Virus record (IMG/VR): IMGVR_UViG_3300031182_000003
From: an uncultured virus (IMG/VR IMGVR_UViG_3300031182_000003)
Lineage: Duplodnaviria > Heunggongvirae > Uroviricota > Caudoviricetes
DNA length: 59,124 nt
Direction: 5' to 3' (one strand)
Part shown: one piece after another, positions 4,030 to 19,061 of the stretch
Layout of the letters: each line of letters begins with the position of its first letter
How positions within the stretch are numbered: the first letter of the stretch is position 1
Made by a program: the position numbers and the translations under genes
Notes under the pieces: model-generated
Told to the model about the DNA's origin: nothing
The model's database searches: none
What the model saw: the letters and a program-made list of their open reading frames with translations, nothing else

Positions 4030-4660
4030 TGTTTGGGATTGCGAATATTATCAGCGTTGCCAGAACAACAATAAGTGCTTGATGTGCGGCCCGAATCAAC
4101 GATTGCTGAAACTACCTGAAGACAAAGGCCGGATGAAACACCGAGCCAAAGCCGTCCAGAACGCCATCACGCCCGTTACGGACAACACCGGGCAAACCCT
4201 TGAAGAATACGTGAAGGACAATTTGAACAACGTGCCCACCATCCGGGAATATTGGGCACGGCGACAGGCTGGCTCGGGCAACATCTGGTTTATGCCAGGC
4301 GACGTTGCAGATACAGTTCTGCTATGCGAATGCAAAGAGCGGCTTCAGTTCAGCAGTAAAGGTGAGAAGCAGATTACGATCACCAAAACGATGCTGGACA
4401 AAATCGAAGCCGAAGCTTCGTCATACTCCAAAGGACTTTATCCGGCACTTCCATTTCGGATCAAGGGCGATGATAAGACGTACATCATCAACCGTTTTGA
4501 AGTTCTTTGCGAGATGGTTCATGAAATCAAGATACTTCGGCATGAGAACTCGGTGGTTTCAGGCGAGCGAGACATGTGGAAAGCGACGGCGGAGGAGTTG
4601 TTCCGAAAGATAGAACAGCTTGAAAAACAACTTGAACAGGAGGGAAGGGAATGGGAGTGA
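4022..4660 (+). CDS. Hjc-type (PD-(D/E)xK) Holliday junction resolvase-like protein with N-terminal Cys cluster
   Basis: ARRQAGSG...GDV...CECK motif; N-terminal C-x5-C-x5-C-x2-C. Confidence 0.7.
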   Translation: MSNVWDCEYYQRCQNNNKCLMCGPNQRLLKLPEDKGRMKHRAKAVQNAITPVTDNTGQTLEEYVKDNLNNVPTIREYWARRQAGSGNIWFMPGDVADTVLLCECKERLQFSSKGEKQITITKTMLDKIEAEASSYSKGLYPALPFRIKGDDKTYIINRFEVLCEMVHEIKILRHENSVVSGERDMWKATAEELFRKIEQLEKQLEQEGREWE

Positions 4661-4878
4661 GCCGTGAAATCGCCGATATACTAGGGGAAGATTTCATTCG
4701 TTGTTCTCATTGCGGTCATCCCGAATTTATCGAGCGGACAGTGGTTACGGTCAGCATCAAGGCGAAGCCGAGAGATATGCACGACCCGGCAGAAGCCTCC
4801 GCCCCTCTCCCTACAATCGAACGGCGCATCGAGTATATATGCGCCGACCGCCATTGTGGCAAGCAATTGAACATGTAA
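4651..4878 (+). CDS. Small zinc-ribbon protein
   Basis: CSHC...CADRHC; overlaps the upstream stop. Confidence 0.7.
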   Translation: MGVSREIADILGEDFIRCSHCGHPEFIERTVVTVSIKAKPRDMHDPAEASAPLPTIERRIEYICADRHCGKQLNM

Positions 4879-4892
4879 GGAGACGTGACCAC

Positions 4893-7325
4893 ATGACTTC
4901 CGCATTCAGCCTTGAGAAACCACCTGTTCCGGCGCAACCGCTGGACATTAAAGATAAAATCCGTCTGGATCGTTACGCGATCAAAGGCAATCGCAACGAT
5001 CTGAAAACCGGCGACTGGTGCGTCGTTCTGACGGTCGAACATCCGAAATTTCCGGTGAAGGAAATCGGTATCGTCAGAGGTTTTCTGGATGAGCGTAGCG
5101 CCGTGGGGCTGTTTGATCCCGACCAGCATGTGCTTCCCTGTGCCCTGAGTTCTGAACAGGGCGAGAACCGGTTCGTCGCGCTTGAGCTTATCTCCGGCGG
5201 CGACTTCAAGAAATGGTTCATCCAGTATATCGGCAAGGTGGACAAACTGCTGGAGTACACATGGGGACAGATCTGTCACCGCGTCGCACTCGGCGTCGCC
5301 AGCGTCGAGAAAGACGAAGCCACTCGGGAACGGGTTTACCGTGACAATTATGAGATTCTCATCAACGAGGAACTCATCCCGGCAGGCCGGGTGAATACCG
5401 GTGCCGGAACGAAGGAATACAAACAGAACATCGGCGCAACACCGGATCAACTGACGCTGTTCAACTGCTATGTTATTCCGAACGCGCATGACAGCCGCCA
5501 AGGTCTGATTGAATCGCTCGGCATTCAAGTCGAAATCCATTCGCGCGGCGGCGGTGTCGGCCAAAACTGGTCGTCTGCCCGCCCGAGAACAACCCCGGTG
5601 ATGGGTGTACGCGGTCGCTCCAGCGGCGCTGTGTCGTGGGGCGGTGGCAAGTCGTACTACACTGGTCTGATCGAGCAGGGTGGCTCACGACGCGGAGCCA
5701 CGATGGGGATGCTTTGCGACTGGCACCCGGACTTGATCGAGTTTATCACCTGCAAACTGTCGCAAAAGACACGGCGTCTGCCGGACGGAACCATCGGTTC
5801 ACCGTTCCAGTACATCAAGAACAAGTTCGAGCATAAATTTCCGGGCTCCACGATTTACGCGCACGGCGTTGAAAACGCCAACCTTTCGGTATTGGTTAGC
5901 GAAGCCTTCATGAAGGCCGTGGAGAACGACGAAATGTGGAAACTGGTATTCCCGGACGTGCGGCATCCGAATTACAACGAAGATTGGGACGGCGACCTGC
6001 CGACGTGGATCGCAAAGCACGGTGCGGAATCGCTGGTGGTGTATCATATTTACCGAGCCCGCGACATCTACGATCTGATCGTCGAATGCAACTGGATGAG
6101 CGCGGAGCCGGGTGTCGTATTCCTTGAATATTACCGGTACATGTCCAACTCGAACTATTACCGGCGTGGGCGAATTGATGCAACTAACCCATGCGGAGAA
6201 CAAGGGTTGCCCGCATGGGGTGTCTGCAACTTGTCGGCCATCAATCTTTCCAGATTTGTCAATGATGAAGTGACCGGTGACTGGAAGAAGGATGTCAAGT
6301 GGGATCGTCTCGCATACGTTATCCGTCGTGCTGTGCGATTCCTTGACAACGTCGTTGACCATACGCCGTACTTCTTCAAGGAGAACGAAATCCAGCAGAA
6401 AGGCGAACGCCGTATCGGCCTCGGCGAAATGGGCTTGGCCGAGATGCTGATCAGACTCGGGCTCCGTTATGGCTCACCGGAAGCCATCGAGTTTACCGAC
6501 CATCTGCATCGCTTTATGGCAGGCGTGGGTTATCATGCATCAGTCGATCTGGCCGCCGAAAAGGGGCCGTTCCCGTGGTTCGACGCCGAAGGATTCCTCT
6601 CCAGTGGACATATGCGGGAAAATATCCTCCCGGCCTTCCCGGAACTGGAGGAGCGTATCCGCAAGTACGGCATCCGCAATGTGACGATCTTTACGATTGC
6701 TCCGACGGGATCCACCGGCACGATGACTGGAACATCGACCGGGTGCGAACCGTACTTCATGTTCTCCTACTGGCGGAACTCGCGGCTTGGCATGAGCCAA
6801 ATTGTCGAGCCGATTGCCATTCGCTGGTTTGAACAAAACGGGATCAATCCGTACAATGAAGACGGCTCGATCAAAGACGGCATCTTCAAGATGTTGCCGG
6901 ACTATTATGTGACGGCGATGGATCTTACGCCGGAGGAACACATCCGTATGCAGGCCGCTATGCAGAAATGGATCTGCTCATCCATCGCGAAGACGATCAA
7001 CGCGCCAAACAGCCATACGTTGGATGACATCCGTGAAATGATTATGCTCGCATGGAAACTGCGGCTCAAAGGGTTCACCTATTACCGAGACGGCTCCCGG
7101 GATGAGCAGGTATTGACCAGTGACGGATCCACCAGCAATCTGACTGAAAAACCGCTCGTTGAAGGGCTTGATAAGCTTTCGTCGGAGCAACTCGCTATTG
7201 TCCAAGAATACGTGCGATCCTGTCTCGCAACGGACAAACCGGACGACAAACAAAGCGGCATGAGTACCGAAGAAGAAATGCTTGCGCTCTCGGGCTGTAT
7301 TGGTGGAAAATGTACACTGGATTGA
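4893..7325 (+). CDS. nrdJ: Class II (adenosylcobalamin-dependent) ribonucleotide reductase
   Basis: PAGR, LFNCYV, GGGVG, QGGSRRGA, AEPG, TNPCGEQ, CNL and IAPTGS motifs; C-terminal CIGGKC; no adjacent beta subunit. Confidence 0.9.
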   Translation: MTSAFSLEKPPVPAQPLDIKDKIRLDRYAIKGNRNDLKTGDWCVVLTVEHPKFPVKEIGIVRGFLDERSAVGLFDPDQHVLPCALSSEQGENRFVALELISGGDFKKWFIQYIGKVDKLLEYTWGQICHRVALGVASVEKDEATRERVYRDNYEILINEELIPAGRVNTGAGTKEYKQNIGATPDQLTLFNCYVIPNAHDSRQGLIESLGIQVEIHSRGGGVGQNWSSARPRTTPVMGVRGRSSGAVSWGGGKSYYTGLIEQGGSRRGATMGMLCDWHPDLIEFITCKLSQKTRRLPDGTIGSPFQYIKNKFEHKFPGSTIYAHGVENANLSVLVSEAFMKAVENDEMWKLVFPDVRHPNYNEDWDGDLPTWIAKHGAESLVVYHIYRARDIYDLIVECNWMSAEPGVVFLEYYRYMSNSNYYRRGRIDATNPCGEQGLPAWGVCNLSAINLSRFVNDEVTGDWKKDVKWDRLAYVIRRAVRFLDNVVDHTPYFFKENEIQQKGERRIGLGEMGLAEMLIRLGLRYGSPEAIEFTDHLHRFMAGVGYHASVDLAAEKGPFPWFDAEGFLSSGHMRENILPAFPELEERIRKYGIRNVTIFTIAPTGSTGTMTGTSTGCEPYFMFSYWRNSRLGMSQIVEPIAIRWFEQNGINPYNEDGSIKDGIFKMLPDYYVTAMDLTPEEHIRMQAAMQKWICSSIAKTINAPNSHTLDDIREMIMLAWKLRLKGFTYYRDGSRDEQVLTSDGSTSNLTEKPLVEGLDKLSSEQLAIVQEYVRSCLATDKPDDKQSGMSTEEEMLALSGCIGGKCTLD

Positions 7326-9864: not shown

Positions 9865-10117
9865 GGGTCAAAAGGTACGTTGGGTCAGCAGTTTCAAAGA
9901 GAAGGTTGGCGAATACGTCGCCTTCGTTCCGGCCAACACGGACATCCGCACGTTGATCCCGGAATACGATCAGCTTTCGCGCAACCAAATCAAGGGCATG
10001 GTGATCAGTACCGTTGACCGGCATCTGATCAAGGTTCCGCGCGGCGGCCAGAGCGTCAAGTATGACTACTATATGCCGGCGGTTTACATGGGAGTCAGCG
10101 TCTATAACGAGGCGTGA
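9851..10117 (+). CDS. Hypothetical protein (possible SH3/KOW-like barrel)
   Basis: AAGGAGG RBS; MKFTKGQKVRW start. Confidence 0.75.
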   Translation: MKFTKGQKVRWVSSFKEKVGEYVAFVPANTDIRTLIPEYDQLSRNQIKGMVISTVDRHLIKVPRGGQSVKYDYYMPAVYMGVSVYNEA

Positions 10118-10524
10118 GCAACTATCGCCGGATTATGGAGGGGATAATCGGTCGCAAGCTCGAATCCCATGAGCATGTACATCACAAAGACCGTAACCGC
10201 TCCAATAACGATCCGTCGAATCTTGAGTTGTGCCCGACACCGAAAGATCATTACCGGGAACATGCCTGGGATCAGGAGGAACTGATACGCTGGCTCATTC
10301 AATACGCTGATGAATTTGGGCATCTCCCGACGCAACGCGAATGCGATGCGCATCCGGGGATGCCCCATTCTTCAACCTTCAGGCGTCATTTCGGGTCGTG
10401 GTCGATGGCAATTCGAGCGGCACAAAACAGGATCGACGAAATCAATCACTTTTGGGAGGAGGAAGTGTATGACGACGAAGGCGACGGATATATTGCACCG
10501 TGTAATGGACATCCTAATGAATGA
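10114..10524 (+). CDS. HNH endonuclease with homing-endonuclease-associated repeat
   Basis: HVHHKDRNRSNNDPSNLEL; EELI...EFGHLPT...PHSSTFRRHFGSW. Confidence 0.85.
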   Translation: MSNYRRIMEGIIGRKLESHEHVHHKDRNRSNNDPSNLELCPTPKDHYREHAWDQEELIRWLIQYADEFGHLPTQRECDAHPGMPHSSTFRRHFGSWSMAIRAAQNRIDEINHFWEEEVYDDEGDGYIAPCNGHPNE

Positions 10525-12197: not shown

Positions 12198-12224
12198 AGC
12201 CGCCTTCATTAAGCGAAGGCGGCT
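12198..12224. terminator. Bidirectional intrinsic terminator
   Basis: Perfect 10-bp stem AGCCGCCTTC/GAAGGCGGCT with AT-rich flanks, between convergent genes. Confidence 0.8.
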
Positions 12225-12664
12225 TTATTCTCCTTTTTGTCAGCGTCAATCCACTCAATCGGTCGGTAGTCTTCGTACAGGTCGCCCATCAGGGTTTCCA
12301 TGATGGCATACGATTGAGCGAAGACGCCTTTGTGCTTTTCTTTTTCCTTGTCGTACACCTCGCGACCCTTCTCCGTGATCTCGTAAATGCGGATCGTCTT
12401 CTTTGAGCTATCTCCAATCCATTCGCCCCGGACTAAACCTTCCGCCTCAAGTTCCCGGAGTATCGGATATACCAAACCGTGTGATGGTTTCCATTGACCG
12501 GAAAAGCGGTCTTCGATGGAGTTGATGATCTCTTTGCCATACAGTCTTCCCTTCATTAGCAATAGGTGTAAGATGTAGATGGTGATGAAGGTGTTCGTGG
12601 ATACTTTCACGGGGAATAGACGATTGTACGCTCCAGAGTAGCGGACTCGCTTCTCTTTTGACAT
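12209..12664 (-). CDS. PadR-family transcriptional regulator
   Basis: YILHLL...LYGKEI...WKPSHGLVYPILRELEAEGLV...RIYEITEKG; AGGAGG RBS. Confidence 0.92.
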   Translation of the reverse strand: MSKEKRVRYSGAYNRLFPVKVSTNTFITIYILHLLLMKGRLYGKEIINSIEDRFSGQWKPSHGLVYPILRELEAEGLVRGEWIGDSSKKTIRIYEITEKGREVYDKEKEKHKGVFAQSYAIMETLMGDLYEDYRPIEWIDADKKENKAAFA

Positions 12665-12706
12665 CACGAAATTCCTCCTGTCATCTTTGAGATTGTCACC
12701 TAAAGC

Positions 12707-12736
12707 TAGTCTATCCGTAACACAGGTGTTTTATTC
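12707..12736 (-). promoter_or_regulatory. Putative sigmaF (early forespore) promoter of the padR-like gene
   Basis: Minus strand GAATA-N15-GGATAGACTA versus consensus GyATA-N15-GGnrAnAnTw. Confidence 0.55.
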
Positions 12737-12739
12737 CTG

Positions 12740-12769
12740 TCATACGGACAAAAACCTTTGCCATACAAT
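12740..12769 (+). promoter_or_regulatory. Putative sigmaE (early mother-cell) promoter
   Basis: TCATACG-N15-CATACAAT versus consensus TCATAtt-N14/15-CATAcaHT. Confidence 0.6.
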
Positions 12770-12803
12770 TATGACATAACATCAGCTTTTGGAGGGGATG
12801 TAA

Positions 12804-13049
12804 ATGATTCCATTGCTCCAATGTAGACTGGCGAAAGATGGCAGGGATACGGATCTTGAGGAGGCATTCCGTGATGTCAAAAACCGTTCGGAACGCATGA
12901 AGCACTTGATACGCTTGGGGTTGAAGGTAGAGCAGGGTGGAGTTATTGATGACAACGAGACTTTAATATTTGATGGGCAAGACTTGGCTCCGGCCCGAGA
13001 TGTTATTGTCGCACAGATAGGAACCAATCGTGTCGTACTGCGGCCCTGA
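12804..13049 (+). CDS. Small putative ribbon-helix-helix DNA-binding protein
   Basis: GGAGGGG RBS; LQCRL strand followed by DTDLEEAF and RSERMKHLIRLGL helices. Confidence 0.55.
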   Translation: MIPLLQCRLAKDGRDTDLEEAFRDVKNRSERMKHLIRLGLKVEQGGVIDDNETLIFDGQDLAPARDVIVAQIGTNRVVLRP

Positions 13050-13080
13050 ACCGCAGTACGCCGTTGGTTCCTTCTTTTTG

Positions 13081-13308
13081 TTATTTGCGCTTGTTCATCT
13101 TCAGCCACGAACGAGGTATGTCGTCCATATCGTCGAGGAAGTCGAGATCAAACTCTATACGCTCCTGCGGCGTCATCTTGCTGTAGGGCTTCCCTCTCGG
13201 TTCATTCATGACTTCCCGAAATTTTTGCATTGCGGTTGAAGCGCGGGTTTTTACCCGGCCAGCAAACGCGAAAAGCGCCTGCTTACTGGCGGCCATATTG
13301 CTTCGCAA
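13081..13308 (-). CDS. Hypothetical protein (75 aa)
   Basis: AAGGAGGG RBS before TTG. Confidence 0.65.
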   Translation of the reverse strand: MRSNMAASKQALFAFAGRVKTRASTAMQKFREVMNEPRGKPYSKMTPQERIEFDLDFLDDMDDIPRSWLKMNKRK

Positions 13309-13335
13309 TGACGATCCCTCCTTTATACCGGACTA

Positions 13336-14043
13336 TCATGAATTTCTTTGCATTTGCTTACGCTTTGCATCCAATCTTGAGAGAACGACTTCCGCAGGTT
13401 CAACCAGCATACCGTTGATAGCTTGAGCCCGCTCTACTCGATTCAGAATTTGCTCGGCTTGAATGCGATCATTGTACATCTGATCCACTGTCGAATATGC
13501 CCGCTCATGTACAAGCGTAGCATCCATTTTTGCTTTTACCTCTTGTTGACGATTCAGCCGCTCGCGCAAGTTGTTGACTTGGCGGCCCGTTTCGGTTTGT
13601 TTGAGCCGTTCTGCGATCTTCTGGCCTTCGTCCGTTGCATTCACCGAGGCTATTCGGGAATCAGTAATCTTCTTCTCGACCTCCTCCTTATATTGTCTCC
13701 AGTCATTATCACCAAACGTCGCCTTGCGGAACAGATCCTTGTCTGCATCGTTATCCAATTGATTCATATATTTCAGCTTATCCTCGTAGCTGAGACCGGA
13801 TACGTTTGTGCCGAATTTCTCGTTGAAGACCTTGCGGGCTTCGTTACGGGCGTACGCTTCTTCTTTCTTGGCGGCGCGGGCCGCTCTGGATTTAGCGTCC
13901 AATCCCAAAGCCCGGGCCGCTTTCTTGTACGCTCCGGTCTTGTGGGCTACGATGGCCCCGGCAACCCCTAATGTTGCTACCCCAATGCCGACGTAAAGCC
14001 CGGTTCGACTCGCATCGTCATTACTCTGAATAGCATGTGGCAT
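13336..14043 (-). CDS. Single-pass membrane-anchored coiled-coil protein
   Basis: AAGGAGGT RBS; GLYVGIGVATLGVAGAIVA TM segment followed by a charged helical region. Confidence 0.8.
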   Translation of the reverse strand: MPHAIQSNDDASRTGLYVGIGVATLGVAGAIVAHKTGAYKKAARALGLDAKSRAARAAKKEEAYARNEARKVFNEKFGTNVSGLSYEDKLKYMNQLDNDADKDLFRKATFGDNDWRQYKEEVEKKITDSRIASVNATDEGQKIAERLKQTETGRQVNNLRERLNRQQEVKAKMDATLVHERAYSTVDQMYNDRIQAEQILNRVERAQAINGMLVEPAEVVLSRLDAKRKQMQRNS

Positions 14044-14097
14044 GTTCACGACCTCCTTTACTGTGAACTTGATACCTTTATTGTATCGGAAATTTTG

Positions 14098-14126
14098 GAA
14101 TAAGACGAGTAGCAATCGACATAGTT
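14098..14126 (+). promoter_or_regulatory. Putative sporulation-sigma (sigmaG/sigmaE-like) promoter of the T4SS-like operon
   Basis: GAATA-N17-CATAGTT; no convincing sigmaA promoter on this strand in the gap. Confidence 0.45.
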
Positions 14127-14130
14127 ATAA

Positions 14131-14155
14131 ACCACCTTACTCCATTGAAGGTGGT
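14131..14155 (+). promoter_or_regulatory. 5'-UTR hairpin occluding the pilin RBS
   Basis: ACCACCTT-N9-AAGGTGGT perfect 8-bp stem whose 3' arm is the Shine-Dalgarno. Confidence 0.55.
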
Positions 14156-14162
14156 GATAACG

Positions 14163-14660
14163 ATGATGACCGCAACGGCGACAGGGTTTCGGGTAACACT
14201 TGAGTCTCGTCCTGTCAGAATTGAGAAAGCAATAGCGAAAGACATCAAAGCTGTCGCAAATTTTATGCAAGGCAAGGAGCCCAAATCATTAAGAAAACAG
14301 CGTCGGGTTTTCGGGTTACTTGTGGGACTTCTTGCCGTAACTCCGACGCATCCGGCGTGGGCCGCGCTTCCGAAGGAAACTATCGAAGCCATGAAGAAGG
14401 AAGCGGTTATCCCGCCGGAAGTCGATATGGTATTGCTCAAGATCCAATTGCTTTGTCTTGGGCTTTGCGTCTCGGTCGCCGTTATTATGGCTATGATAGC
14501 CGGTCTTTTAAGGATTATTGGGCTTCGCGAAGAAGCGAGGCGCAGGTACGCGGATGCCTGCATGGGTATGATCCAAGTGCTTACTGCACCTGCTGTGTTG
14601 GGTATCCTAGCCATGATTGTCCGAGGTTTGCTCAAGCTCTTTCCCGGTTCTTTGATGTAA
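14163..14660 (+). CDS. VirB2/TrbC-like T4SS pilin
   Basis: Long basic leader, hydrophobic signal ending PAWA-A, two TM helices separated by REEARRRY; first gene of a VirB6/ATPase/relaxase operon. Confidence 0.7.
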   Translation: MMTATATGFRVTLESRPVRIEKAIAKDIKAVANFMQGKEPKSLRKQRRVFGLLVGLLAVTPTHPAWAALPKETIEAMKKEAVIPPEVDMVLLKIQLLCLGLCVSVAVIMAMIAGLLRIIGLREEARRRYADACMGMIQVLTAPAVLGILAMIVRGLLKLFPGSLM

Positions 14661-15586
14661 AGCGGCGCACGCTGAAGGCGTTTGCGCTCGCGCTACCCTG
14701 TCTTTTTCTGCCGGGATGCCAGTCGGCGGAGGAGTATATTGTTGAAAAAGAGCGCGGCTTCTTGATCGACTTTGTCGGATGGATCTTCGACGAAATGCTC
14801 AAGTATGTTTTGTTTACGCCGTTCTCCGTATTCAAAACGACAACAACCATGAGTCTCGTGTTCAAATTCGGAGTCATTTCCGGCGGGCTTGTAACCGTAC
14901 TCGCCATGATTGAAGGCATCAAGCGCACGCTTTCCATGCAATACACCCCGATCTCCACCATCATTCGTCGATATCCCATTGCGCTTGCAGTTACAGCTTT
15001 TGCGCCGACCCTGTTCTATTTTGCAGGCATGGGAGTCAACGAACTCGTCTCCCTGATTGGCCTCATTACCGGTTCCACCCTTCATTCTTCAGCAATCTAT
15101 TCCAGCACTCTGCATCAGTTTGGCGCAAGCATCTACATGGCGTTTCTGACATTCATCTTTATTGCTGTGCTTGGATACTATCTGATCCGCACATTCTTTT
15201 TTCATGCGAACCGCTGGTTCGGCTTGCTGTTCAACTGTGTGATGACGCCATTCGTTATGTTGGCGTACACGTTCCGGCCTTACGAGCAGGTGGCAAGCGG
15301 CTGGCTCAGGGATACGCTATACAAATACGGTATTCAGGTCTATCAAAGCCTTTTGCTCAGTCTGGTCGCCGTGATTCTGTATGCGCCGAACATCTTCCCG
15401 TTTGAGGGCACCATCGACGGTATGAACTCTGGACTCGTTCGATTGATGCTGTCTATCGGAGGTTTACATGTGATGAATTACCCGCCGTCGTGGCTTCAGA
15501 GCATCTTTCCGTCATCCGGCGGCGAAAAGAACATGCTGAAAAACATCGTCAGAGTGGCGAAAATGCTGGCGACGCGCTCAAAGTGA
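14657..15586 (+). CDS. VirB6/TrbL-like polytopic membrane protein (start uncertain)
   Basis: About 6-7 TM segments; RWFGLLFNCVMTPFVMLAYTFRPYEQVASGWLR...IQVYQSLLL resembles the VirB6 core; no canonical start codon at the apparent N-terminus. Confidence 0.65.
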   Translation, partial: VKRRTLKAFALALPCLFLPGCQSAEEYIVEKERGFLIDFVGWIFDEMLKYVLFTPFSVFKTTTTMSLVFKFGVISGGLVTVLAMIEGIKRTLSMQYTPISTIIRRYPIALAVTAFAPTLFYFAGMGVNELVSLIGLITGSTLHSSAIYSSTLHQFGASIYMAFLTFIFIAVLGYYLIRTFFFHANRWFGLLFNCVMTPFVMLAYTFRPYEQVASGWLRDTLYKYGIQVYQSLLLSLVAVILYAPNIFPFEGTIDGMNSGLVRLMLSIGGLHVMNYPPSWLQSIFPSSGGEKNMLKNIVRVAKMLATRSK

Positions 15587-15598
15587 AGGGGGTGTCCC

Positions 15599-15730
15599 AT
15601 GTCGGCTGAGCAAATTATGACGGTTGCCTTGGTCATTCAGACGACGGTGCTTGCCATTAACACGATTACATTGATGGTCGTCGGTATCCTGACGCTCAAG
15701 GTGGTGAGCGGGCGTGCAAGAGGCAAATAG
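15599..15730 (+). CDS. 43-aa single-TM peptide (absent from the ORF track)
   Basis: AAGGGGGTG RBS; MSAEQIMTVALVIQTTVLAINTITLMVVGILTLKVVSGRARGK; overlaps the ATPase start. Confidence 0.7.
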   Translation: MSAEQIMTVALVIQTTVLAINTITLMVVGILTLKVVSGRARGK

Positions 15731-18122
15731 ATACCGCCCCGGCATCCTGAAGGTTCACGACTACGTCTCTTACCGCATCGCGCCCACGACCGACAACAAT
15801 AATGCGGAACTTGGTACACTCATCAAATCGTTCTACTCTATTCGCAACGATCAGTTATTCAAGGCGCTCCGAGGTGGTCAGCCAGTCATCGCATTTGAAC
15901 TGTACGCAGACCACAATACCAGCTTTTATCTTTACACGGTTCCCGCCCGACACAAGATTCTGATGAAGGAGCGCATTCAGGCCGCGTTCAAGGGAGCCGG
16001 GGTGAAAGAGCATACCCATAAAGGATGGCCGTTTGAGGAGGATCCGCCGGACACATTGATCGCTACCCTCAACCTGACGAAGAACCCGATCTTCCCGCTT
16101 CAACTCGGCGATACTATGATCTGCAAAGATATGCTTCATGTAACGGAGGAGTTGCGTGAGGGCGAAAAAGCTTTCGTGCAAATTCTGATCGAGCCGATTC
16201 TCGACAGTTGGCAGGAGGATCTGGAGAAGACCTATGAGGCGTATCTTCGGGGCGATCCGGTCGCTGATGGTAACTGGCTTCAGGCCGGAGGGCGGATGCT
16301 GGACAGTTCCATCACGCGATGGGTCAACACCATCGGTAAGCAGAAGCAGAGCGAGCGACCGAGTCAAAAGAAGCACCGGCAGATCAACGATTTTCACAAG
16401 AAAATTCGCCAGTCCGGCTTCCATGTTGCCGTCCGGCTGGCGGTGCAGGCGAAAGATTATGGCCGCCGAAACGACATTATCGAAGGACTTGCGGGCTCAT
16501 TCAAGGCAACCAACTACTACAACAATTGGCGTCTGTCCGGCGTGCTGTTCAAGAAAGCGGCGCTGATGTCCATCCAGAGAAGACAAATGCCTCTTATGTC
16601 TTCGCATAATCTCCTGTGCGAAGACGAGTTGAAAGGCTTGCTGTGTTTTCCCACGAAGGACATCAAGACAAAACGACTGGAGAGGATGGTGCCCGATGAA
16701 GAACATGTGGATCAACGTATCACAAGCGCAATCATTCCTGTTGGATATAGCATTGAATACGATTCCCGAGGAAAAGAAGTCGGATTTAGTATCGCTAATC
16801 CTGACACAGCCGCAAAGGCTCGACTTTGGATCGCTCCTCCGGGTAGTGGAAAATCAACTGCCGTCAAAGTCTTTATGCAAGGAGCCCTTGCCGTCGGACA
16901 TGGTGGAAGCATTTTTGATGTTGCAGACGGAAGGCTCTACCTCGAAGCAATCGAATGTACGCCGCTGGAGCGACGCGACAAACTCGTCCTCGTCGATTTC
17001 GCAAACCAAGAATATCCCCACGTCTTCAACTTCTCAAGTCTTGGAACAGACGCAGATACCATCGGCATGATGTTCGCGGAGTTCTTCGAGATTTTCTTCC
17101 ACACGGCGAGCTACGCTCGAATGAACTCCTTCCTTCAAAAATCGGCCATTACGGTATTCACCGACCCGGATTCGACGTTTCTGGAATTGATCCTGATGAT
17201 GCGGGATGAAGATTACCGCCGCAAGTTTCTGCCGAAGATCCGTAAAACACACCCGGATTTGTATCTATGGTGGAAATCGGAGTTCCCGAAGATCGCCAAG
17301 AGCGAGGCGATGATAAATGAAATTCTCCAGCCGATCCTCTACCGCCTCGATAACCTGCAATACAACAAACGGATCGCGCCGATCTTTTGCGGACGCGGCG
17401 GACGGCTGGAGATCGCCAAATGGATGAATGAAGGGCGGTGGATCCTCTACAACCTCTCCAACGGCGTATTTTTGGAGACGGAACAGCGGATGCTAATGAG
17501 TTTTCTCAATTACGCCTATTGGACGGCGACGCTGTCGCGAGAAGCAATGCTTCAGCGCAAGCAGGAGCCCATCCTACACCACAAGATGTACGACGAGCCG
17601 CAGACATACATGACAGCGACGCCGGTCTTTGAACTCAGCATCTCCAAATCGAGGAAGTACCGGGTGAGCGACAACTTCCTCATTCAGAATCCAACGCAAG
17701 TGATTAAGCGCGACCCGGCGCTCTGGAGCCAGATCATCGGCATGAATCCACATATCCTCGTCGGCGGCGGGCTTGACAACGATGGCCTAAAGGAAATGGC
17801 GAGTATCCTGAAGATCTCGAAGGAGGAACTCGCTCAGCTTGAATCGCTCGAATACCACTGGTACTTCAAGACGTATGTAGGCAAGGAGAGTCTGAAGCCG
17901 TTCATCTTCAACGCCAAAGGGATGCTCCCGAAATCCTACGGCCCGGATCCGGCCCTGCAACAAAAGTGGAGACGCATTCTTGCCCCGAAGACTGTGGATG
18001 AGCATCGAGAGGATATTTCGGCGCGAAACCTGAAGCTTACGGTTCAGGAATATCGCGAATTGTTGGAGTCCTACGAGCATAAAGAGGAGGAAGAAGGTGT
18101 TCCGCTTGGGCAGGATTCGTAA
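15714..18122 (+). CDS. VirD4/TraG-like (FtsK-HerA superfamily) coupling ATPase
   Basis: Walker A APPGSGKST, Walker B MYDEPQ, SRKYRV..LIQ..Q; overlaps the relaxase gene; no N-terminal TM. Confidence 0.8.
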   Translation: MQEANRYRPGILKVHDYVSYRIAPTTDNNNAELGTLIKSFYSIRNDQLFKALRGGQPVIAFELYADHNTSFYLYTVPARHKILMKERIQAAFKGAGVKEHTHKGWPFEEDPPDTLIATLNLTKNPIFPLQLGDTMICKDMLHVTEELREGEKAFVQILIEPILDSWQEDLEKTYEAYLRGDPVADGNWLQAGGRMLDSSITRWVNTIGKQKQSERPSQKKHRQINDFHKKIRQSGFHVAVRLAVQAKDYGRRNDIIEGLAGSFKATNYYNNWRLSGVLFKKAALMSIQRRQMPLMSSHNLLCEDELKGLLCFPTKDIKTKRLERMVPDEEHVDQRITSAIIPVGYSIEYDSRGKEVGFSIANPDTAAKARLWIAPPGSGKSTAVKVFMQGALAVGHGGSIFDVADGRLYLEAIECTPLERRDKLVLVDFANQEYPHVFNFSSLGTDADTIGMMFAEFFEIFFHTASYARMNSFLQKSAITVFTDPDSTFLELILMMRDEDYRRKFLPKIRKTHPDLYLWWKSEFPKIAKSEAMINEILQPILYRLDNLQYNKRIAPIFCGRGGRLEIAKWMNEGRWILYNLSNGVFLETEQRMLMSFLNYAYWTATLSREAMLQRKQEPILHHKMYDEPQTYMTATPVFELSISKSRKYRVSDNFLIQNPTQVIKRDPALWSQIIGMNPHILVGGGLDNDGLKEMASILKISKEELAQLESLEYHWYFKTYVGKESLKPFIFNAKGMLPKSYGPDPALQQKWRRILAPKTVDEHREDISARNLKLTVQEYRELLESYEHKEEEEGVPLGQDS

Positions 18123-18981
18123 GGGCCGCTCTCAGCGGGAACATGTGGCGACCATATCGAAGGAATGGGTACAGCAACATAGCCACATCCTCACGCCACG
18201 GGATGTGGCTATGTTGCACTTGCTGGCGCAGTTCCCGGTTATGACCGTGCGTCATCTTTATATATTGACGCCGCAGACCACACTCAAGAGCGGAAAGGTA
18301 ATCCGACCGTTCTTTGAGTGTCGGCGCGGCGAACAAATCTGCCGCGACCGCATCCGCAAGTTGTTTGAGTATCATTTCGTCAACAAGTATTCGCCGAAAC
18401 TACCCATAGGGGAGGGAACCAGCGTGCAATACATCTGGCTGGATCGAGCGGGATACAAATACTTGGACATCGAGGGTAGGCCGTCGAAGACGCTGACGAT
18501 GGAATACCAGCACCACGCCCGCATCCTCGACGCCTACTGTATGTTAACCGAGCTTGATCGCACGGGTGAGATTAGTATAGATCTGATGCGGGCCTGCTAT
18601 TCATACAAGCCGAAGACGGCGCAAATCGAGCCGGACTTAATCGTGGCCTTCAGGAAGAACGGATTCGGCTACAAATACTTCATTGAGGTAGACAACTGCG
18701 AAAAGAAGGAAATGGATGAGCTTCGCAAGCTGGAACGCTATCGTGATTGGGAACTCTCCAGCCAGTGGATCAAGGAGTCTTGGGCGGAATTATACCGCCG
18801 CAAGTTTCCGCGCGTTCTGTATCTGTTCTCCGGCGGCTCCGACAAAAAGATCTCCCGGCGCATTCATGCGTTCCGGGAGCGGGCCCGGGAGGTCGAATGC
18901 AGAGGAGACTTCCTGCCGTTCGAGCAATTCCGGGATAAGATTTTGAGCTTGGGGCATAATATGGAGAAGATGGGCATATGA
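18097..18981 (+). CDS. Replication-relaxation (Replic_Relax / MOB_C-type) relaxase
   Basis: LTPRD..ML..L...wHTH, WLDRAG, QHH, IEPD...FIEVD and KLERY motifs. Confidence 0.85.
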   Translation: MFRLGRIRKGRSQREHVATISKEWVQQHSHILTPRDVAMLHLLAQFPVMTVRHLYILTPQTTLKSGKVIRPFFECRRGEQICRDRIRKLFEYHFVNKYSPKLPIGEGTSVQYIWLDRAGYKYLDIEGRPSKTLTMEYQHHARILDAYCMLTELDRTGEISIDLMRACYSYKPKTAQIEPDLIVAFRKNGFGYKYFIEVDNCEKKEMDELRKLERYRDWELSSQWIKESWAELYRRKFPRVLYLFSGGSDKKISRRIHAFRERAREVECRGDFLPFEQFRDKILSLGHNMEKMGI

Positions 18982-19019
18982 TATATCGCTCCAGCACATC
19001 TTTGAGGCTGTCACCGAGC

Positions 19020-19061
19020 ATAAACGGCTCCCGTAGGACTATCACCCCGGGAGCCGTTTAT
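19020..19061. terminator. Bidirectional intrinsic terminator
   Basis: 14-bp perfect inverted repeat ATAAACGGCTCCCG/CGGGAGCCGTTTAT between convergent operons. Confidence 0.85.

Follow-up and report, generated by a model that had tools for sequence, protein, structure and literature searches.

The "DNA translocation operon" known from large Bacillus-type phages, in an island of an uncultured tailed phage

An insulated island and its closest relative

The window (the whole stretch of 59,124 nucleotides analysed here) contains an island that, by sequence comparison and with good support, is this phage's version of the "DNA translocation operon" known from large Bacillus-type phages. It is a further copy of a little-studied, conjugation-like gene set first described in a Bacillus phage in 2012, when Pathria et al. 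gave that name to orf200-204 and orf208 of phage 0305phi8-36 (PMC3357382); it has since been cited in a review (2014) and in a further paper (2026). Gene order and orientation are the same in both phages, as are the flanking virion genes, and in each a PadR-type regulator marks the left end; the shared proteins are 70% (PadR; gp208, by tblastn), 48% (pilin-like; gp204), 46% (VirB6-like), 62% (ATPase) and 62% (relaxase) identical. The original prediction had presented the island as a candidate new system, a claim that does not survive the 2012 description, in which the same operon was also deleted: deletion of orf200-207 is reported to cause no growth defect, and 0305phi8-36 can grow lytically without the operon (PMC3357382).

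The window is phage DNA, encoding a primase, RNR, a helicase and many virion proteins, with a G+C content of about 50-52%, and its phage is recorded only in metagenomes. The island comprises a PadR gene, three small genes and then a five-gene operon (14163-18981, + strand). The genes listed in the original prediction are real and stand in the order given there (PadR, the TM coiled-coil gene, the operon down to the relaxase), and the two bidirectional terminators said to bound them are borne out by folding energies on both strands. The left hairpin (12198..12224), terminator-like on both strands in the terminator scan, reaches -20.3/-22.2 kcal/mol (z -4.9/-5.4), with 0/200 shuffles equally stable, and the right one (about 19020..19061), missed by that scan because of its long loop, reaches -26.9/-30.3 kcal/mol (z -6.4/-4.5). 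Terminator-like hairpins occur at both island ends in 0305phi8-36 as well. The island is an insulated accessory unit.

At its left end, the PadR-family regulator (152 aa, 12209..12667, - strand) is confirmed by Pfam (PadR, E 1.6e-18). An 81-aa gene with a good ribosome-binding site (12804..13049, + strand), recognised from the ORF list and the sequence, is followed by a terminator hairpin and a T-run (13034..13060, + strand; -20.7 kcal/mol, z -4.2); this gene with its own terminator was absent from the earlier gene list. A 75-aa gene taken from the ORF list (13081..13308, - strand) comes next. Neither product matches any Pfam, PHROG or NCBIfam family, and the "RHH-like" assignment is not confirmed, whereas the other proposed gene identities mostly stand (pilin-like, VirB6-like, coupling-type ATPase, MOB_C-type relaxase). 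The predicted membrane coiled-coil gene corresponds to a 235-aa protein (13336..14043, - strand; start, ribosome-binding site and TM prediction) that combines a single N-terminal TM helix with a long coiled-coil-like region. Comparison with six related loci gave no homologue of the 81-aa gene, and comparison with related loci none of the 235-aa protein. These three genes stand where 0305phi8-36 has gp205 (a virion protein), gp206 and gp207 (actin-like), and no actin-like partition gene is present in the window.

The operon

The operon reads as predicted: pilin-like protein, VirB6-like protein, 43-aa TM peptide, ATPase, relaxase. The first product (165 aa, 14163..14660, + strand; phrog_3528, E 2.6e-25) has a long leader ending in AWA followed by two TM helices, and matches T4SS_pilin/TrbC clusters of the Atlas at 0.89; its pilin-like nature is retained only as a lead. 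The second (14657..15586, + strand; phrog_3750, E 6.7e-58) is a polytopic membrane protein of VirB6/TrbL type with a lipoprotein-type N-terminus, whose ORF has no ATG, GTG or TTG near the N-terminus and lies in frame -1 relative to the preceding gene. Its top five Foldseek matches are all TrwI/VirB6 (E 0.015-0.053, prob 0.98-0.99; model pLDDT 63) and Atlas matches fall in TrbL_4/TrbL_5 clusters at 0.92; the product is VirB6-like both by its predicted fold and by the Atlas. A 43-aa peptide with a single predicted TM segment (15599..15730, + strand), weakly matching gp202 of 0305phi8-36, overlaps the ATPase start.

The ATPase (802 aa, 15714..18122, + strand; phrog_5156, E 1.8e-157) belongs to the VirD4/HerA/VirB4 superfamily. 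An N-domain matching no named family (residues ~1-330) precedes a motor with a helical insert. In the AF2 model (pLDDT 80.8), the C-domain (residues 331-742) matches VirB4-C, TrwB, HerA and DotL (VIA Z 26.3, 24.2, 24.0 and 23.7), with DndH-C within the same range (26.3-23.7), and HerA defence complexes and DndH/DptH are also among the fold matches; fold alone does not distinguish the motor from VirB4 or HerA. The family profile compared with PDB sequences gives HerA (1.8e-9 and 6.8e-9), DotL (1.5e-7), TrwB (2.3e-7) and VirB4 (1.9e-4). Among 20 relatives chosen across the 150 that a search of representatives listed, Pfam detects TrwB_AAD_bind in 13, TraG-D_C in 14 and T4SS-DNA_transf in 6, and CagE_TrbE_VirB or AAA_10 in none. 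No TM segment is predicted in the 802 residues. The protein is soluble, belongs to the VirD4/HerA class of hexameric-type ATPases and carries an N-terminal domain specific to its family.

The last gene (18097..18981, + strand) encodes a MOB_C/Replic_Relax protein of 294 aa with a wHTH and a PD-(D/E)XK-type domain (PF13814, E 3e-7, 31.2 bits against a cut-off of 25.3; phrog_9381, E 4e-75), a family labelled "replication initiation by nicking" in PHROGs. Residues P179, D180, E197, V198 and D199 are invariant in 16 sequences, including SPO1 gp27.3.

As the original prediction held, searches of the island found no VirB4, VirB8-like protein or peptidoglycan hydrolase. VirB4 was likewise sought in the window and across the complete 0305phi8-36 and SPO1 genomes and not found, and the same holds for a VirB8-like gene or TcpC.

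Repeats and promoter motifs

A 19-nt direct repeat found by repeat search flanks the island, with one copy in the PadR leader/promoter region (12682..12700, + strand) and the other just 3' of the relaxase stop codon (18997..19015, + strand). The copies agree at 17/19 positions, sharper than in 0305phi8-36 (13/16), and the pattern has two exact matches in the window, namely these copies (0.30 expected at no more than two mismatches). The same search revealed a perfect 17-bp inverted repeat with a 10-nt loop in the 5' end of the relaxase gene (18174..18217; -34.4 kcal/mol, z -6.3), partly kept in one related locus (L008) and absent from 0305phi8-36.

Sporulation promoters had been proposed, and only the sigmaE part finds some support. 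The scan used consensus patterns from B. subtilis. It found a sigmaE-like motif (ATA-N17-CATACAAT; 12740..12769, + strand; ATA-N17-CATA at 12742) ahead of the 81-aa gene and a promoter-like ATA-N17-CATA 5' of the operon (14100..14127, + strand), in a block conserved with 0305phi8-36. These are the only two intergenic matches in the window (12742 and 14100; shuffle mean 0.5, at least two in 10% of shuffles), and a stricter pattern has one intergenic match, a count reached in 3% of shuffles; the motif count is not significant on its own. The sigmaF and sigmaG patterns have no intergenic match in the window, contrary to what had been proposed, and Spo0A boxes are not enriched (11 found, 13.7 expected). 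Sigma-E-like motifs are kept at both orthologous promoters of 0305phi8-36 (locus L001), as a CATA element with the same spacing at the place corresponding to the 81-aa-gene promoter (2517) and as ATAAGACGAG-N10-CATACAGT at the operon promoter (4392); none of the scanned motifs is present at the SPO1 module promoters. Since 0305phi8-36 encodes its own RNA polymerase and uses phage-specific promoters (PMC2147016), the motifs may serve a phage enzyme instead.

Proposed function

Our tentative reading of the module, a pump for phage DNA anchored in the membrane, joins the well-supported identity to an inferred mechanism and a septal setting and, taken whole, falls somewhat short of an even chance. 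Three membrane parts (a VirB2/TrbC-like propilin, the VirB6/TrbL-like protein and the TM peptide) would form a small inner-membrane platform on which the ATPase would dock via its N-domain. The Replic_Relax protein, as a site-specific DNA-binding nuclease, would recognise a site on the phage DNA, with the 19-nt repeat and the 17-bp inverted repeat as candidates, and pass the DNA to the motor, which would move it through a membrane; PadR may keep the module silent during ordinary lytic growth. Septa are most plausibly the site of action: when the host stops growing, the phage genome would be segregated to, or driven into, a daughter compartment at a division or sporulation septum, the forespore above all. 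This setting is the weakest step. Spore entry is favoured circumstantially by the Bacillus, Lysinibacillus or "Deep-sea" labels of nearly all phage-collection matches, the actin-like neighbour gene of relatives, the FtsK/SpoIIIE variant of Bastille-type phages, which retain the membrane proteins and N-domain with a swapped motor, and dispensability in lytic growth. The sigmaE-like motifs shared with 0305phi8-36 and the virospores of SPO1 also speak for the reading as a whole. Against it, the actin-like gene is missing from the window, the sigmaE-like motif is short and may serve a phage polymerase, Spo0A boxes are not enriched, no Clostridium- or Paenibacillus-labelled record was matched, the motor's fold does not set it apart from VirB4 or HerA, phi29-type entrapment is not known to need a phage pump, and mobilisable elements, too, classically pair a relaxase with a coupling protein.

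That pairing is the basis of an unlikely alternative, in which an oriT, in the phage genome or in the island, is nicked by the relaxase and the coupling-type ATPase delivers the DNA to the conjugative T4SS of a resident plasmid or ICE, allowing virion-free spread between touching cells. CloDF13 mobB/mobC likewise places a MOB_C-type relaxase next to a VirD4-clade ATPase, either repeat could be the oriT, and the lack of VirB4 (AAA_10, CagE_TrbE_VirB) and TcpC in the 0305phi8-36 and SPO1 genomes means that a helper T4SS would be needed. However, Bastille-type phages keep the membrane proteins and N-domain with an FtsK/SpoIIIE motor and no relaxase, so that whatever function the variants have in common can require neither a relaxase nor a helper T4SS. 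Moreover, unlike coupling proteins the ATPase has no TM anchor, genomes of 130-220 kb would be unusual conjugation substrates (that of SPO1 has modified bases besides), and relatives in the plasmid collection are partial, with only 1/123 records reaching a coverage of at least 80%. Mobilisation was the alternative of the original prediction and is also the biofilm idea of Pathria et al. (PMC3357382).

Plasmid-like maintenance of a carrier (pseudolysogenic) state, with no DNA crossing a membrane, is similarly improbable. Replic_Relax would then be a replication initiator or site-specific DNA-binding protein, as the Pfam name (replication and relaxation) and the PHROGs label suggest, the ATPase together with the membrane proteins would serve to tether the phage genome to the membrane, and in relatives, where Alp7A-type actin and iterons adjoin the module, the actin-like protein would partition it; PadR control and lytic dispensability fit too. 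Yet VirB6/TrbL-like and pilin-like proteins are channel parts rather than tethers, both motor types (VirD4-class and FtsK/SpoIIIE) are DNA translocases, and the window phage carries primase, helicase and replication genes elsewhere. Finally, a conflict module, in which a HerA-like motor and a PD-(D/E)XK nuclease on a membrane platform act against incoming DNA (superinfecting phage, conjugative plasmids) or on host DNA without moving the phage's own genome, is very unlikely: HerA proteins are the best PDB matches of the family profile, defence complexes are among the fold matches and the nuclease-type residues are invariant, but the T4SS-type membrane partners, the partition genes of relatives and the FtsK-type variant better fit DNA transport.

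Distribution and comparison with known systems

Many large Bacillus phages carry relatives of the module, often adjoining an actin-like partition gene, of Alp7A type in 0305phi8-36, SPO1, Bastille and phiAGATE. Among 50,697 phage records searched with three queries, the ATPase matched 61 (Bacillus 57, Lysinibacillus 2, "Deep-sea" 2), the relaxase 42 (all Bacillus) and the VirB6-like protein 159 (Bacillus 157, "Phage" 1, Xanthomonas 1). All matches thus carry Bacillus, Lysinibacillus or "Deep-sea" labels except two VirB6-like records, and no Clostridium- or Paenibacillus-labelled record was matched by any query.

With Gram-positive T4SS of the ICEBs1, Tn916 and pCW3 types the module shares a VirB6-like channel protein, an FtsK/VirD4-superfamily ATPase and a relaxase, whereas VirB4, the VirB8-like TcpC and an island hydrolase were sought and not found. 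CloDF13 mobB/mobC and pAD1 TraX (MOB_C) resemble it in a wHTH and PD-(D/E)XK relaxase adjoining a coupling-type ATPase, according to PMC3357382 and PMC3424549, the former relating orf200 of 0305phi8-36 to CloDF13 MobC (HHpred, E 4.4e-22). In contrast to these systems, the ATPase here has no TM anchor and comes with VirB6-like and pilin-like proteins of its own, and the module lies in a lytic-type phage, relaxase nicking and oriT being only candidate features.

The Bastille-type module (Bastillevirinae, phiAGATE, SPbeta-like Goe14) encodes homologues of the pilin-like and VirB6-like proteins as well as a peptide of about 40 aa (37 aa in Bastille), and the Bastille ATPase N-domain aligns with residues 115-319 of the window ATPase (hhalign, E 4e-5; phrog_3551, E 1.1e-8). 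It differs in an FtsK/SpoIIIE motor (Pfam FtsK_SpoIIIE, E 4.3e-49) in place of the VirD4-type one, in the absence of a relaxase, in the presence of an actin-like gene and iterons, the latter 3' of the small adaptor gene in Bastille, and, in phiAGATE, in an extra metallo-endopeptidase. By eye, the Bastille motor carries an apparent gamma-type wHTH.

In SPO1 genes 27.3-27.9 and their relatives (Spounavirinae), an ATPase of the VirD4 class that belongs to the same family (22.5% identity over 745 aa, E 5e-37) precedes Replic_Relax (25%, E 2e-22). Four small proteins stand instead of the VirB6-like protein, of which SPO1 has no tblastn match at E 0.01, and SPO1 has the actin-like gene 27.9. According to PMC12991052, SPO1 forms virospores, and its ParM-like gp27.9 has been proposed to aid entrapment.

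Gene content and boundaries of the island

The island (12198..19061 of the window) is collinear with orf208 and orf204-200 of phage 0305phi8-36 (tblastn, 46-70% identity), with 70% identity for PadR, 48% for the pilin-like protein, 46% for the VirB6-like protein and 62% for both the ATPase and the relaxase. It is a real, well-bounded, further copy of an already known phage module. To the right of the module, the window and 0305phi8-36 share the same virion genes. The window belongs to a large phage genome: a primase, a DnaB-like helicase, a ribonucleotide reductase and Holliday-junction resolvases were identified in a PHROGs scan of its 53 predicted proteins, and many of its “virion structural proteins” belong to families built on 0305phi8-36.

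The two hairpins proposed to bound the island are both strong. The left one (12198-12224, both strands) was recovered by the terminator scan and has folding energies of -20.3/-22.2 kcal/mol, a stability reached by 0 of 200 shuffles. The right one (about 19020-19061, both strands) folds at -26.9/-30.3 kcal/mol and is absent from the scan because of its long loop, which the scan does not allow. The PadR regulator (12209..12667, minus strand) is confirmed by Pfam (E 1.6e-18), as is the predicted membrane coiled-coil gene (13336..14043, minus strand) by its 235-aa product, which combines a single TM helix with a long coiled-coil-like stretch. The genes named in the original prediction were found, but its list lacked an 81-aa gene (12804..13049, plus strand), which has its own terminator. 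The 81-aa product, the 235-aa product and that of a 75-aa gene (13081..13308, minus strand) match no Pfam, PHROG or NCBIfam family, so the label “RHH-like” given to one island gene stays unconfirmed, and the three genes have no homologue among the six related loci compared.

A 24-nt inverted repeat (12656-12679 and 12859-12882, 92% complementary) consists of the ribosome-binding site and first codons of PadR, copied in reverse orientation inside the 81-aa gene; it may be a trace left when a rearrangement exchanged the region of the actin-like gene. Just left of the island, among unassigned genes, is an HNH endonuclease gene (10114-10524); homing endonucleases are a known feature of 0305phi8-36.

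Membrane proteins of the operon

The first gene of the operon encodes a 165-aa protein (plus strand; phrog_3528, E 2.6e-25) in which an AWA motif and two hydrophobic helices accompany a long hydrophilic leader. This layout fits VirB2/TrbC/T4SS_pilin, and a protein-language-model atlas puts the protein near clusters carrying T4SS_pilin and TrbC (0.89, a lead only); it has no Pfam family match, and its designation as a pilin is tentative. Its start was set at ATG 14163, because an internal ATG at 14265, also considered, has no ribosome-binding site and is replaced by CTA in 0305phi8-36.

The second protein (phrog_3750, E 6.7e-58) is polytopic, with at least five hydrophobic segments, and its modeled fold points to the VirB6/TrbL family. 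The first five Foldseek ranks for the AF2 model, whose pLDDT is only 63.2, were all R388 TrwI/VirB6 (E 0.015-0.053, prob 0.98-0.99), and the following rows were unrelated receptors (prob about 0.1). Independently, the atlas placed the protein with TrbL_4/TrbL_5 clusters (0.92, 203 features). Pfam TrbL gave no match, nor did a profile of the protein against PDB sequences. The predicted VirB6-like gene is thus retained on fold and atlas evidence. The 43-aa single-TM peptide is also present, and its gene overlaps the ATPase start.

The start of the VirB6-like gene is unusual. No ATG, GTG or TTG lies near its signal-peptide-like N-terminus, where GTA is found at 14657, and the ORF (14657-15586) is shifted to the -1 frame with respect to the pilin-like gene. 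No stop interrupts this frame across the upstream gene over 436 nt in the window (14225-14660), 406 nt in 0305phi8-36 (L001, its module locus, 4565-4970) and 448 nt in phage Bastille (L011, the corresponding locus, 5311-5758). When synonymous codons were shuffled within each gene in 3000 trials, the frame was still open in 0.8%, 0.07% and 1.2%, respectively; with resampling from local codon usage, the figures were 8.4%, 0% and 0%. An in-frame A-AAT-TTT heptamer is present just past the frame opening in the window (14258) and in 0305phi8-36 (L001 4580), and not at the corresponding place in Bastille. An ordinary start is seen in some relatives, among them one whose protein begins MKRHTK and phage phiAGATE, where the gene is separate. 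The arrangement could be due to a programmed -1 frameshift, to an overlapping N-terminal extension or to a non-canonical start.

The ATPase

The 802-aa ATPase matches no Pfam family at E 0.1, including T4SS-DNA_transf, TrwB_AAD_bind, TraG-D_C and FtsK_SpoIIIE, and no NCBIfam family. It belongs to a large family, as a profile of 18 close relatives retrieved 4002 cluster representatives at E ≤0.001 and 1485 at ≤1e-10. Among 20 relatives chosen across 150 listed representatives, TrwB_AAD_bind was found in 13, TraG-D_C in 14 and T4SS-DNA_transf in 6, and the VirB4 families CagE_TrbE_VirB and AAA_10 were found neither in these 20 nor in the window ATPase. PF26449 is present as a precomputed annotation on relatives. 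In the AF2 model (pLDDT 80.8), the C-terminal motor (residues 331-742) gave tied structural matches to VirB4-C (Z 26.3), DndH-C (25.2), TrwB (24.2, rmsd 4.6, 368 aligned), HerA (24.0) and DotL (23.7), with FtsK (17.0) below VirD4/HerA; full-length alignments with TrwK had an rmsd of 10.8. The single sequence had no match among PDB sequences, and a 60-sequence family profile ranked HerA (1.8e-9) above DotL (1.5e-7) and TrwB (2.3e-7), and these above VirB4 (1.9e-4). Based on the Pfam families of its relatives, the tied folds and this ranking, we class the protein as a VirD4/HerA-class motor. The sole PDB match of the profile of close relatives, CYP51, was dismissed as chance.

The Walker residues G379, K380, D627 and E628 are invariant in the 60 sequences, and in the model an all-alpha insert (helices 447-559) lies between the Walker motifs; the protein has a RecA-like NBD with Walker A/B, an all-alpha insert and a TrwB-like fold. 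“Coupling ATPase” is a fair name, but the TM anchor that defines coupling proteins is lacking (no hydrophobic segment, Kyte-Doolittle window 19). The homologous orf201 of 0305phi8-36 also has no TM domain (PMC3357382). An uncontrolled complex prediction for the N-domain (residues 1-335) with the three membrane proteins gave no verdict (score 0.00 against a mark of 0.32).

The Replic_Relax protein and associated repeats

The last product of the operon (294 aa) was predicted to be a MOB_C/Replic_Relax relaxase, and this family assignment holds: residues 41-218 match PF13814 at 31.2 bits, above the cut-off of 25.3, and the protein belongs to phrog_9381 (E 4e-75). P179, D180, E197, V198 and D199 are invariant across 16 sequences including SPO1 gp27.3, and these acidic residues fit the reported assignment of the Replic_Relax/MOB_C family to the PD-(D/E)XK superfamily (PMC3424549). 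The NCBIfam family MobC_subf (NF041423) gave no match at E 0.1.

A 19-nt direct repeat (17/19 identical) brackets the island, with one copy in the PadR leader (12682-12700) and the other just past the relaxase stop codon (18997-19015). In the 59 kb, these copies are the only two perfect matches to the core pattern of the repeat, for 0.30 expected at ≤2 mismatches. A weaker pair (13/16, by eye) is found at the same two places in 0305phi8-36, and no comparable flanking direct repeats were found around the modules of SPO1, Bastille, phiAGATE and Goe14. In addition, the relaxase coding sequence contains, within its 5' end, an inverted repeat of 17 bp without mismatches and with a loop of 10 nt (18174-18217, -34.4 kcal/mol), 52 nt after the ATPase stop codon and with no T-run behind it; one relative keeps part of this inverted repeat, and 0305phi8-36 lacks it. 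Either repeat could represent an operator or a transfer origin (oriT), and the 19-nt repeat could also be a recombination site.

A block upstream of PadR is conserved in both phages (window 12668-12760; L001 2424-2500). It contains CCTGTCAT twice in the window, the second copy being variant in 0305phi8-36; this probably serves as an operator common to the divergent promoters.

Promoter motifs

The B. subtilis sigmaE consensus is ATA, 16-18 nt, CATACA-T. The sporulation sigma patterns used here are B. subtilis consensus sequences. Sigma-70-type matches are rarer in the region than in shuffles, and none precedes a gene. The pattern “ATA, 16-18 nt, CATA” has two intergenic matches in the window, both in the island (shuffles: mean 0.5, at least two in 10%), and both are ATA-N17-CATA in the correct orientation: a strict form upstream of the 81-aa gene (12740-12769, plus strand) and a loose form upstream of the operon (14100-14127, plus strand). 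The stricter pattern has one intergenic match, a number reached by 3% of shuffles. The motif count alone is not significant. Both motifs recur at the orthologous places in 0305phi8-36 with an identical 17-nt spacing, the operon promoter there reading CATACAGT within a conserved ATAAGACGAG block. A CCATA element also precedes the actin genes of phiAGATE and Goe14, and none was found in SPO1. The conservation of these sigmaE-like sequences is suggestive but weak.

Of the proposed sporulation promoters, only a candidate sigmaE-like motif stands: it occurs twice and is kept at both places in 0305phi8-36, but not in SPO1, and the sigmaF, sigmaG and sigmaK patterns have no intergenic match in the window. 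Spo0A boxes were not enriched. A Sigma70_r2 search of the 0305phi8-36 genome found none; according to PMC2147016, this phage encodes no sigma factor but has a YonO-like RNA polymerase as well as a 21-bp promoter class of its own.

Distribution of the module and absence of other T4SS components

Among 50,697 phage records, the ATPase matched 61 (Bacillus 57, Lysinibacillus 2, “Deep-sea” 2), 29 of them with a coverage of at least 80%; the relaxase matched 42, all Bacillus, and the VirB6-like protein 159 (Bacillus 157, “Phage” 1, Xanthomonas 1). The collection also includes Listeria, Staphylococcus and Enterococcus phages, since a query with an FtsK motor retrieves them. All matches but two, both to the VirB6-like protein, thus carry a Bacillus, Lysinibacillus or “Deep-sea” label. 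The carriers include SPO1-like and Bastille-like myoviruses, phage G, large siphoviruses and the SPbeta-like Goe14. A search of IMG/VR for relatives gave 0305phi8-36 alone, and a scan of bacterial genomes for ATPase relatives confirmed nothing. Sequencing runs listed as carrying the phage come from phyllosphere, soil, manure and bioreactor metagenomes, with no RNA dataset among them.

In Bastille, the ATPase comes after homologues of the pilin-like and VirB6-like proteins and a 37-aa peptide. Its motor is, unlike that of the window, of the FtsK/SpoIIIE type (FtsK_SpoIIIE Pfam domain, E 4.3e-49), and it is not followed by a relaxase. The N-domain of the Bastille ATPase can be aligned with window ATPase residues 115-319 (hhalign E 4e-5, probability 70%; phrog_3551 E 1.1e-8). 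An Alp7A-type actin gene adjoins the module in 0305phi8-36, SPO1, Bastille and phiAGATE, the last having an additional metallo-endopeptidase. Three 16-nt iterons directly follow the small gene located after the actin-like partition gene of Bastille (L011 4691-4748) and look like the centromere of an Alp7A-type system in a virulent myovirus.

Only one of 123 plasmid records with a relative of the ATPase covers at least 80% of its length, an Alicyclobacillus dauci plasmid (6354-9451 of its locus, L012; 22% identity over 80% of the length). On this plasmid, the ATPase gene follows an M23 metallopeptidase gene, and a gene for a small acid-soluble spore protein is found some 3 kb away.

The original prediction of a set without VirB4, a VirB8-like protein (TcpC) or a cell-wall hydrolase is borne out, as none was found in the island or the 59-kb window. 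Outside the island, the absence of VirB4 and TcpC extends to the window and to the complete genomes of 0305phi8-36 and SPO1, where AAA_10, CagE_TrbE_VirB and TcpC gave nothing at E 0.01 and control genomes responded.

Possible function

The spore entry of virulent Bacillus phage genomes is a question dating from the trapping experiments of the 1960s-70s. The literature covered now discusses it with reference to Spo0A boxes, Par-like genes and phage sigma factors. A 2014 review speculated that phage FtsK/SpoIIIE homologues bear on sporulation (PMC4113786), and SPO1 is reported to form virospores (spores carrying a trapped phage genome), for which its ParM-like gp27.9 was proposed as a helper (PMC12991052). 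In the literature covered, which included few subscription journals, only this ParM-like gene and FtsK/SpoIIIE homologues in general were tied to spores.

The island combines T4SS-type membrane parts, a DNA-translocase-class motor, a MOB_C-type nuclease and insulation by hairpins and PadR. The three membrane proteins may form a platform for the anchorless ATPase, since the same N-domain and the same membrane partners are found with two different motors. The motor would move DNA across a membrane, and Replic_Relax would provide the sequence specificity, a part that in the FtsK-type variant would fall to its own C-terminal DNA-binding end. Because platform and N-domain are common to two motors, with or without a relaxase, the shared function is narrowed and simple helper-dependent conjugation is disfavored. 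Such mobilization, the alternative put forward originally, fits the pairing of a relaxase with a coupling protein but not the relaxase-free FtsK variant keeping the same partners, and we consider it improbable. We hold the same opinion of plasmid-like maintenance, and a role in conflict is very improbable.

The setting we favor is septa, the sporulation septum in particular, although this is the weakest step. Several points suggest it: the module is spread over unrelated phage lineages yet confined to phages with Bacillus-type hosts, it has partition genes as neighbors, one variant has a SpoIIIE-type motor, the module is apparently silent during lytic growth, and SPO1 is reported to form virospores. 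Taken as a whole, the septum or spore reading is a tentative one, to which we would give slightly less than even chances. Its specific version, forespore entry, appears rather unlikely: the module would pump or secure the unintegrated phage genome into the forespore, as a minimal pump made of T4SS-type channel parts and an interchangeable VirD4- or FtsK/SpoIIIE-type motor, usually with an actin-like partition system, and in the window phage Replic_Relax and the 19-nt flanking sites would give this pump its sequence direction. If so, virospores would be a strategy that the phage encodes, rather than an accidental outcome of septation. Spore entry has circumstantial support and is a testable hypothesis, for which the module is a concrete, deletable candidate, widespread in large Bacillus phages, dispensable for plaques and made of DNA-translocation parts. 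Should it be unrelated to dormancy, it would still be the sole T4SS-like set encountered here across lytic phages, and its substrate would be of interest.

Comparison with the DNA translocation operon of 0305phi8-36

The island was originally put forward as a candidate new system, a claim that does not stand, the same operon having been described in 0305phi8-36, deleted and named the “DNA translocation operon” by Pathria et al. 2012 (PMC3357382). As reported there, orf200 is homologous to CloDF13 MobC, orf201 to VirD4/TraG, orf203 to VirB6 and orf207 to MreB, and a similar set exists in SPO1. Deletion of orf200-207 left plaque size and yield unchanged (PMC3357382), so the operon is dispensable in this close relative. 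Its authors proposed a role in DNA transfer in biofilms, and spores are not mentioned in their paper (no occurrence of “spor”; PMC3357382). The island has the ordered gene set (pilin-like, VirB6-like, small TM peptide, TM-less VirD4-like ATPase and Replic_Relax) and the adjacent regulator of an operon of the 0305phi8-36 type. No match to gp207 was found in the island and no partition-protein PHROG among the 53 window proteins, whereas the MreB/actin-like orf207 is counted within the operon by its authors (PMC3357382). The 81-aa, 75-aa and 235-aa genes of the window occupy the place taken in 0305phi8-36 by gp207 (actin-like), gp206 and gp205 (a virion protein).
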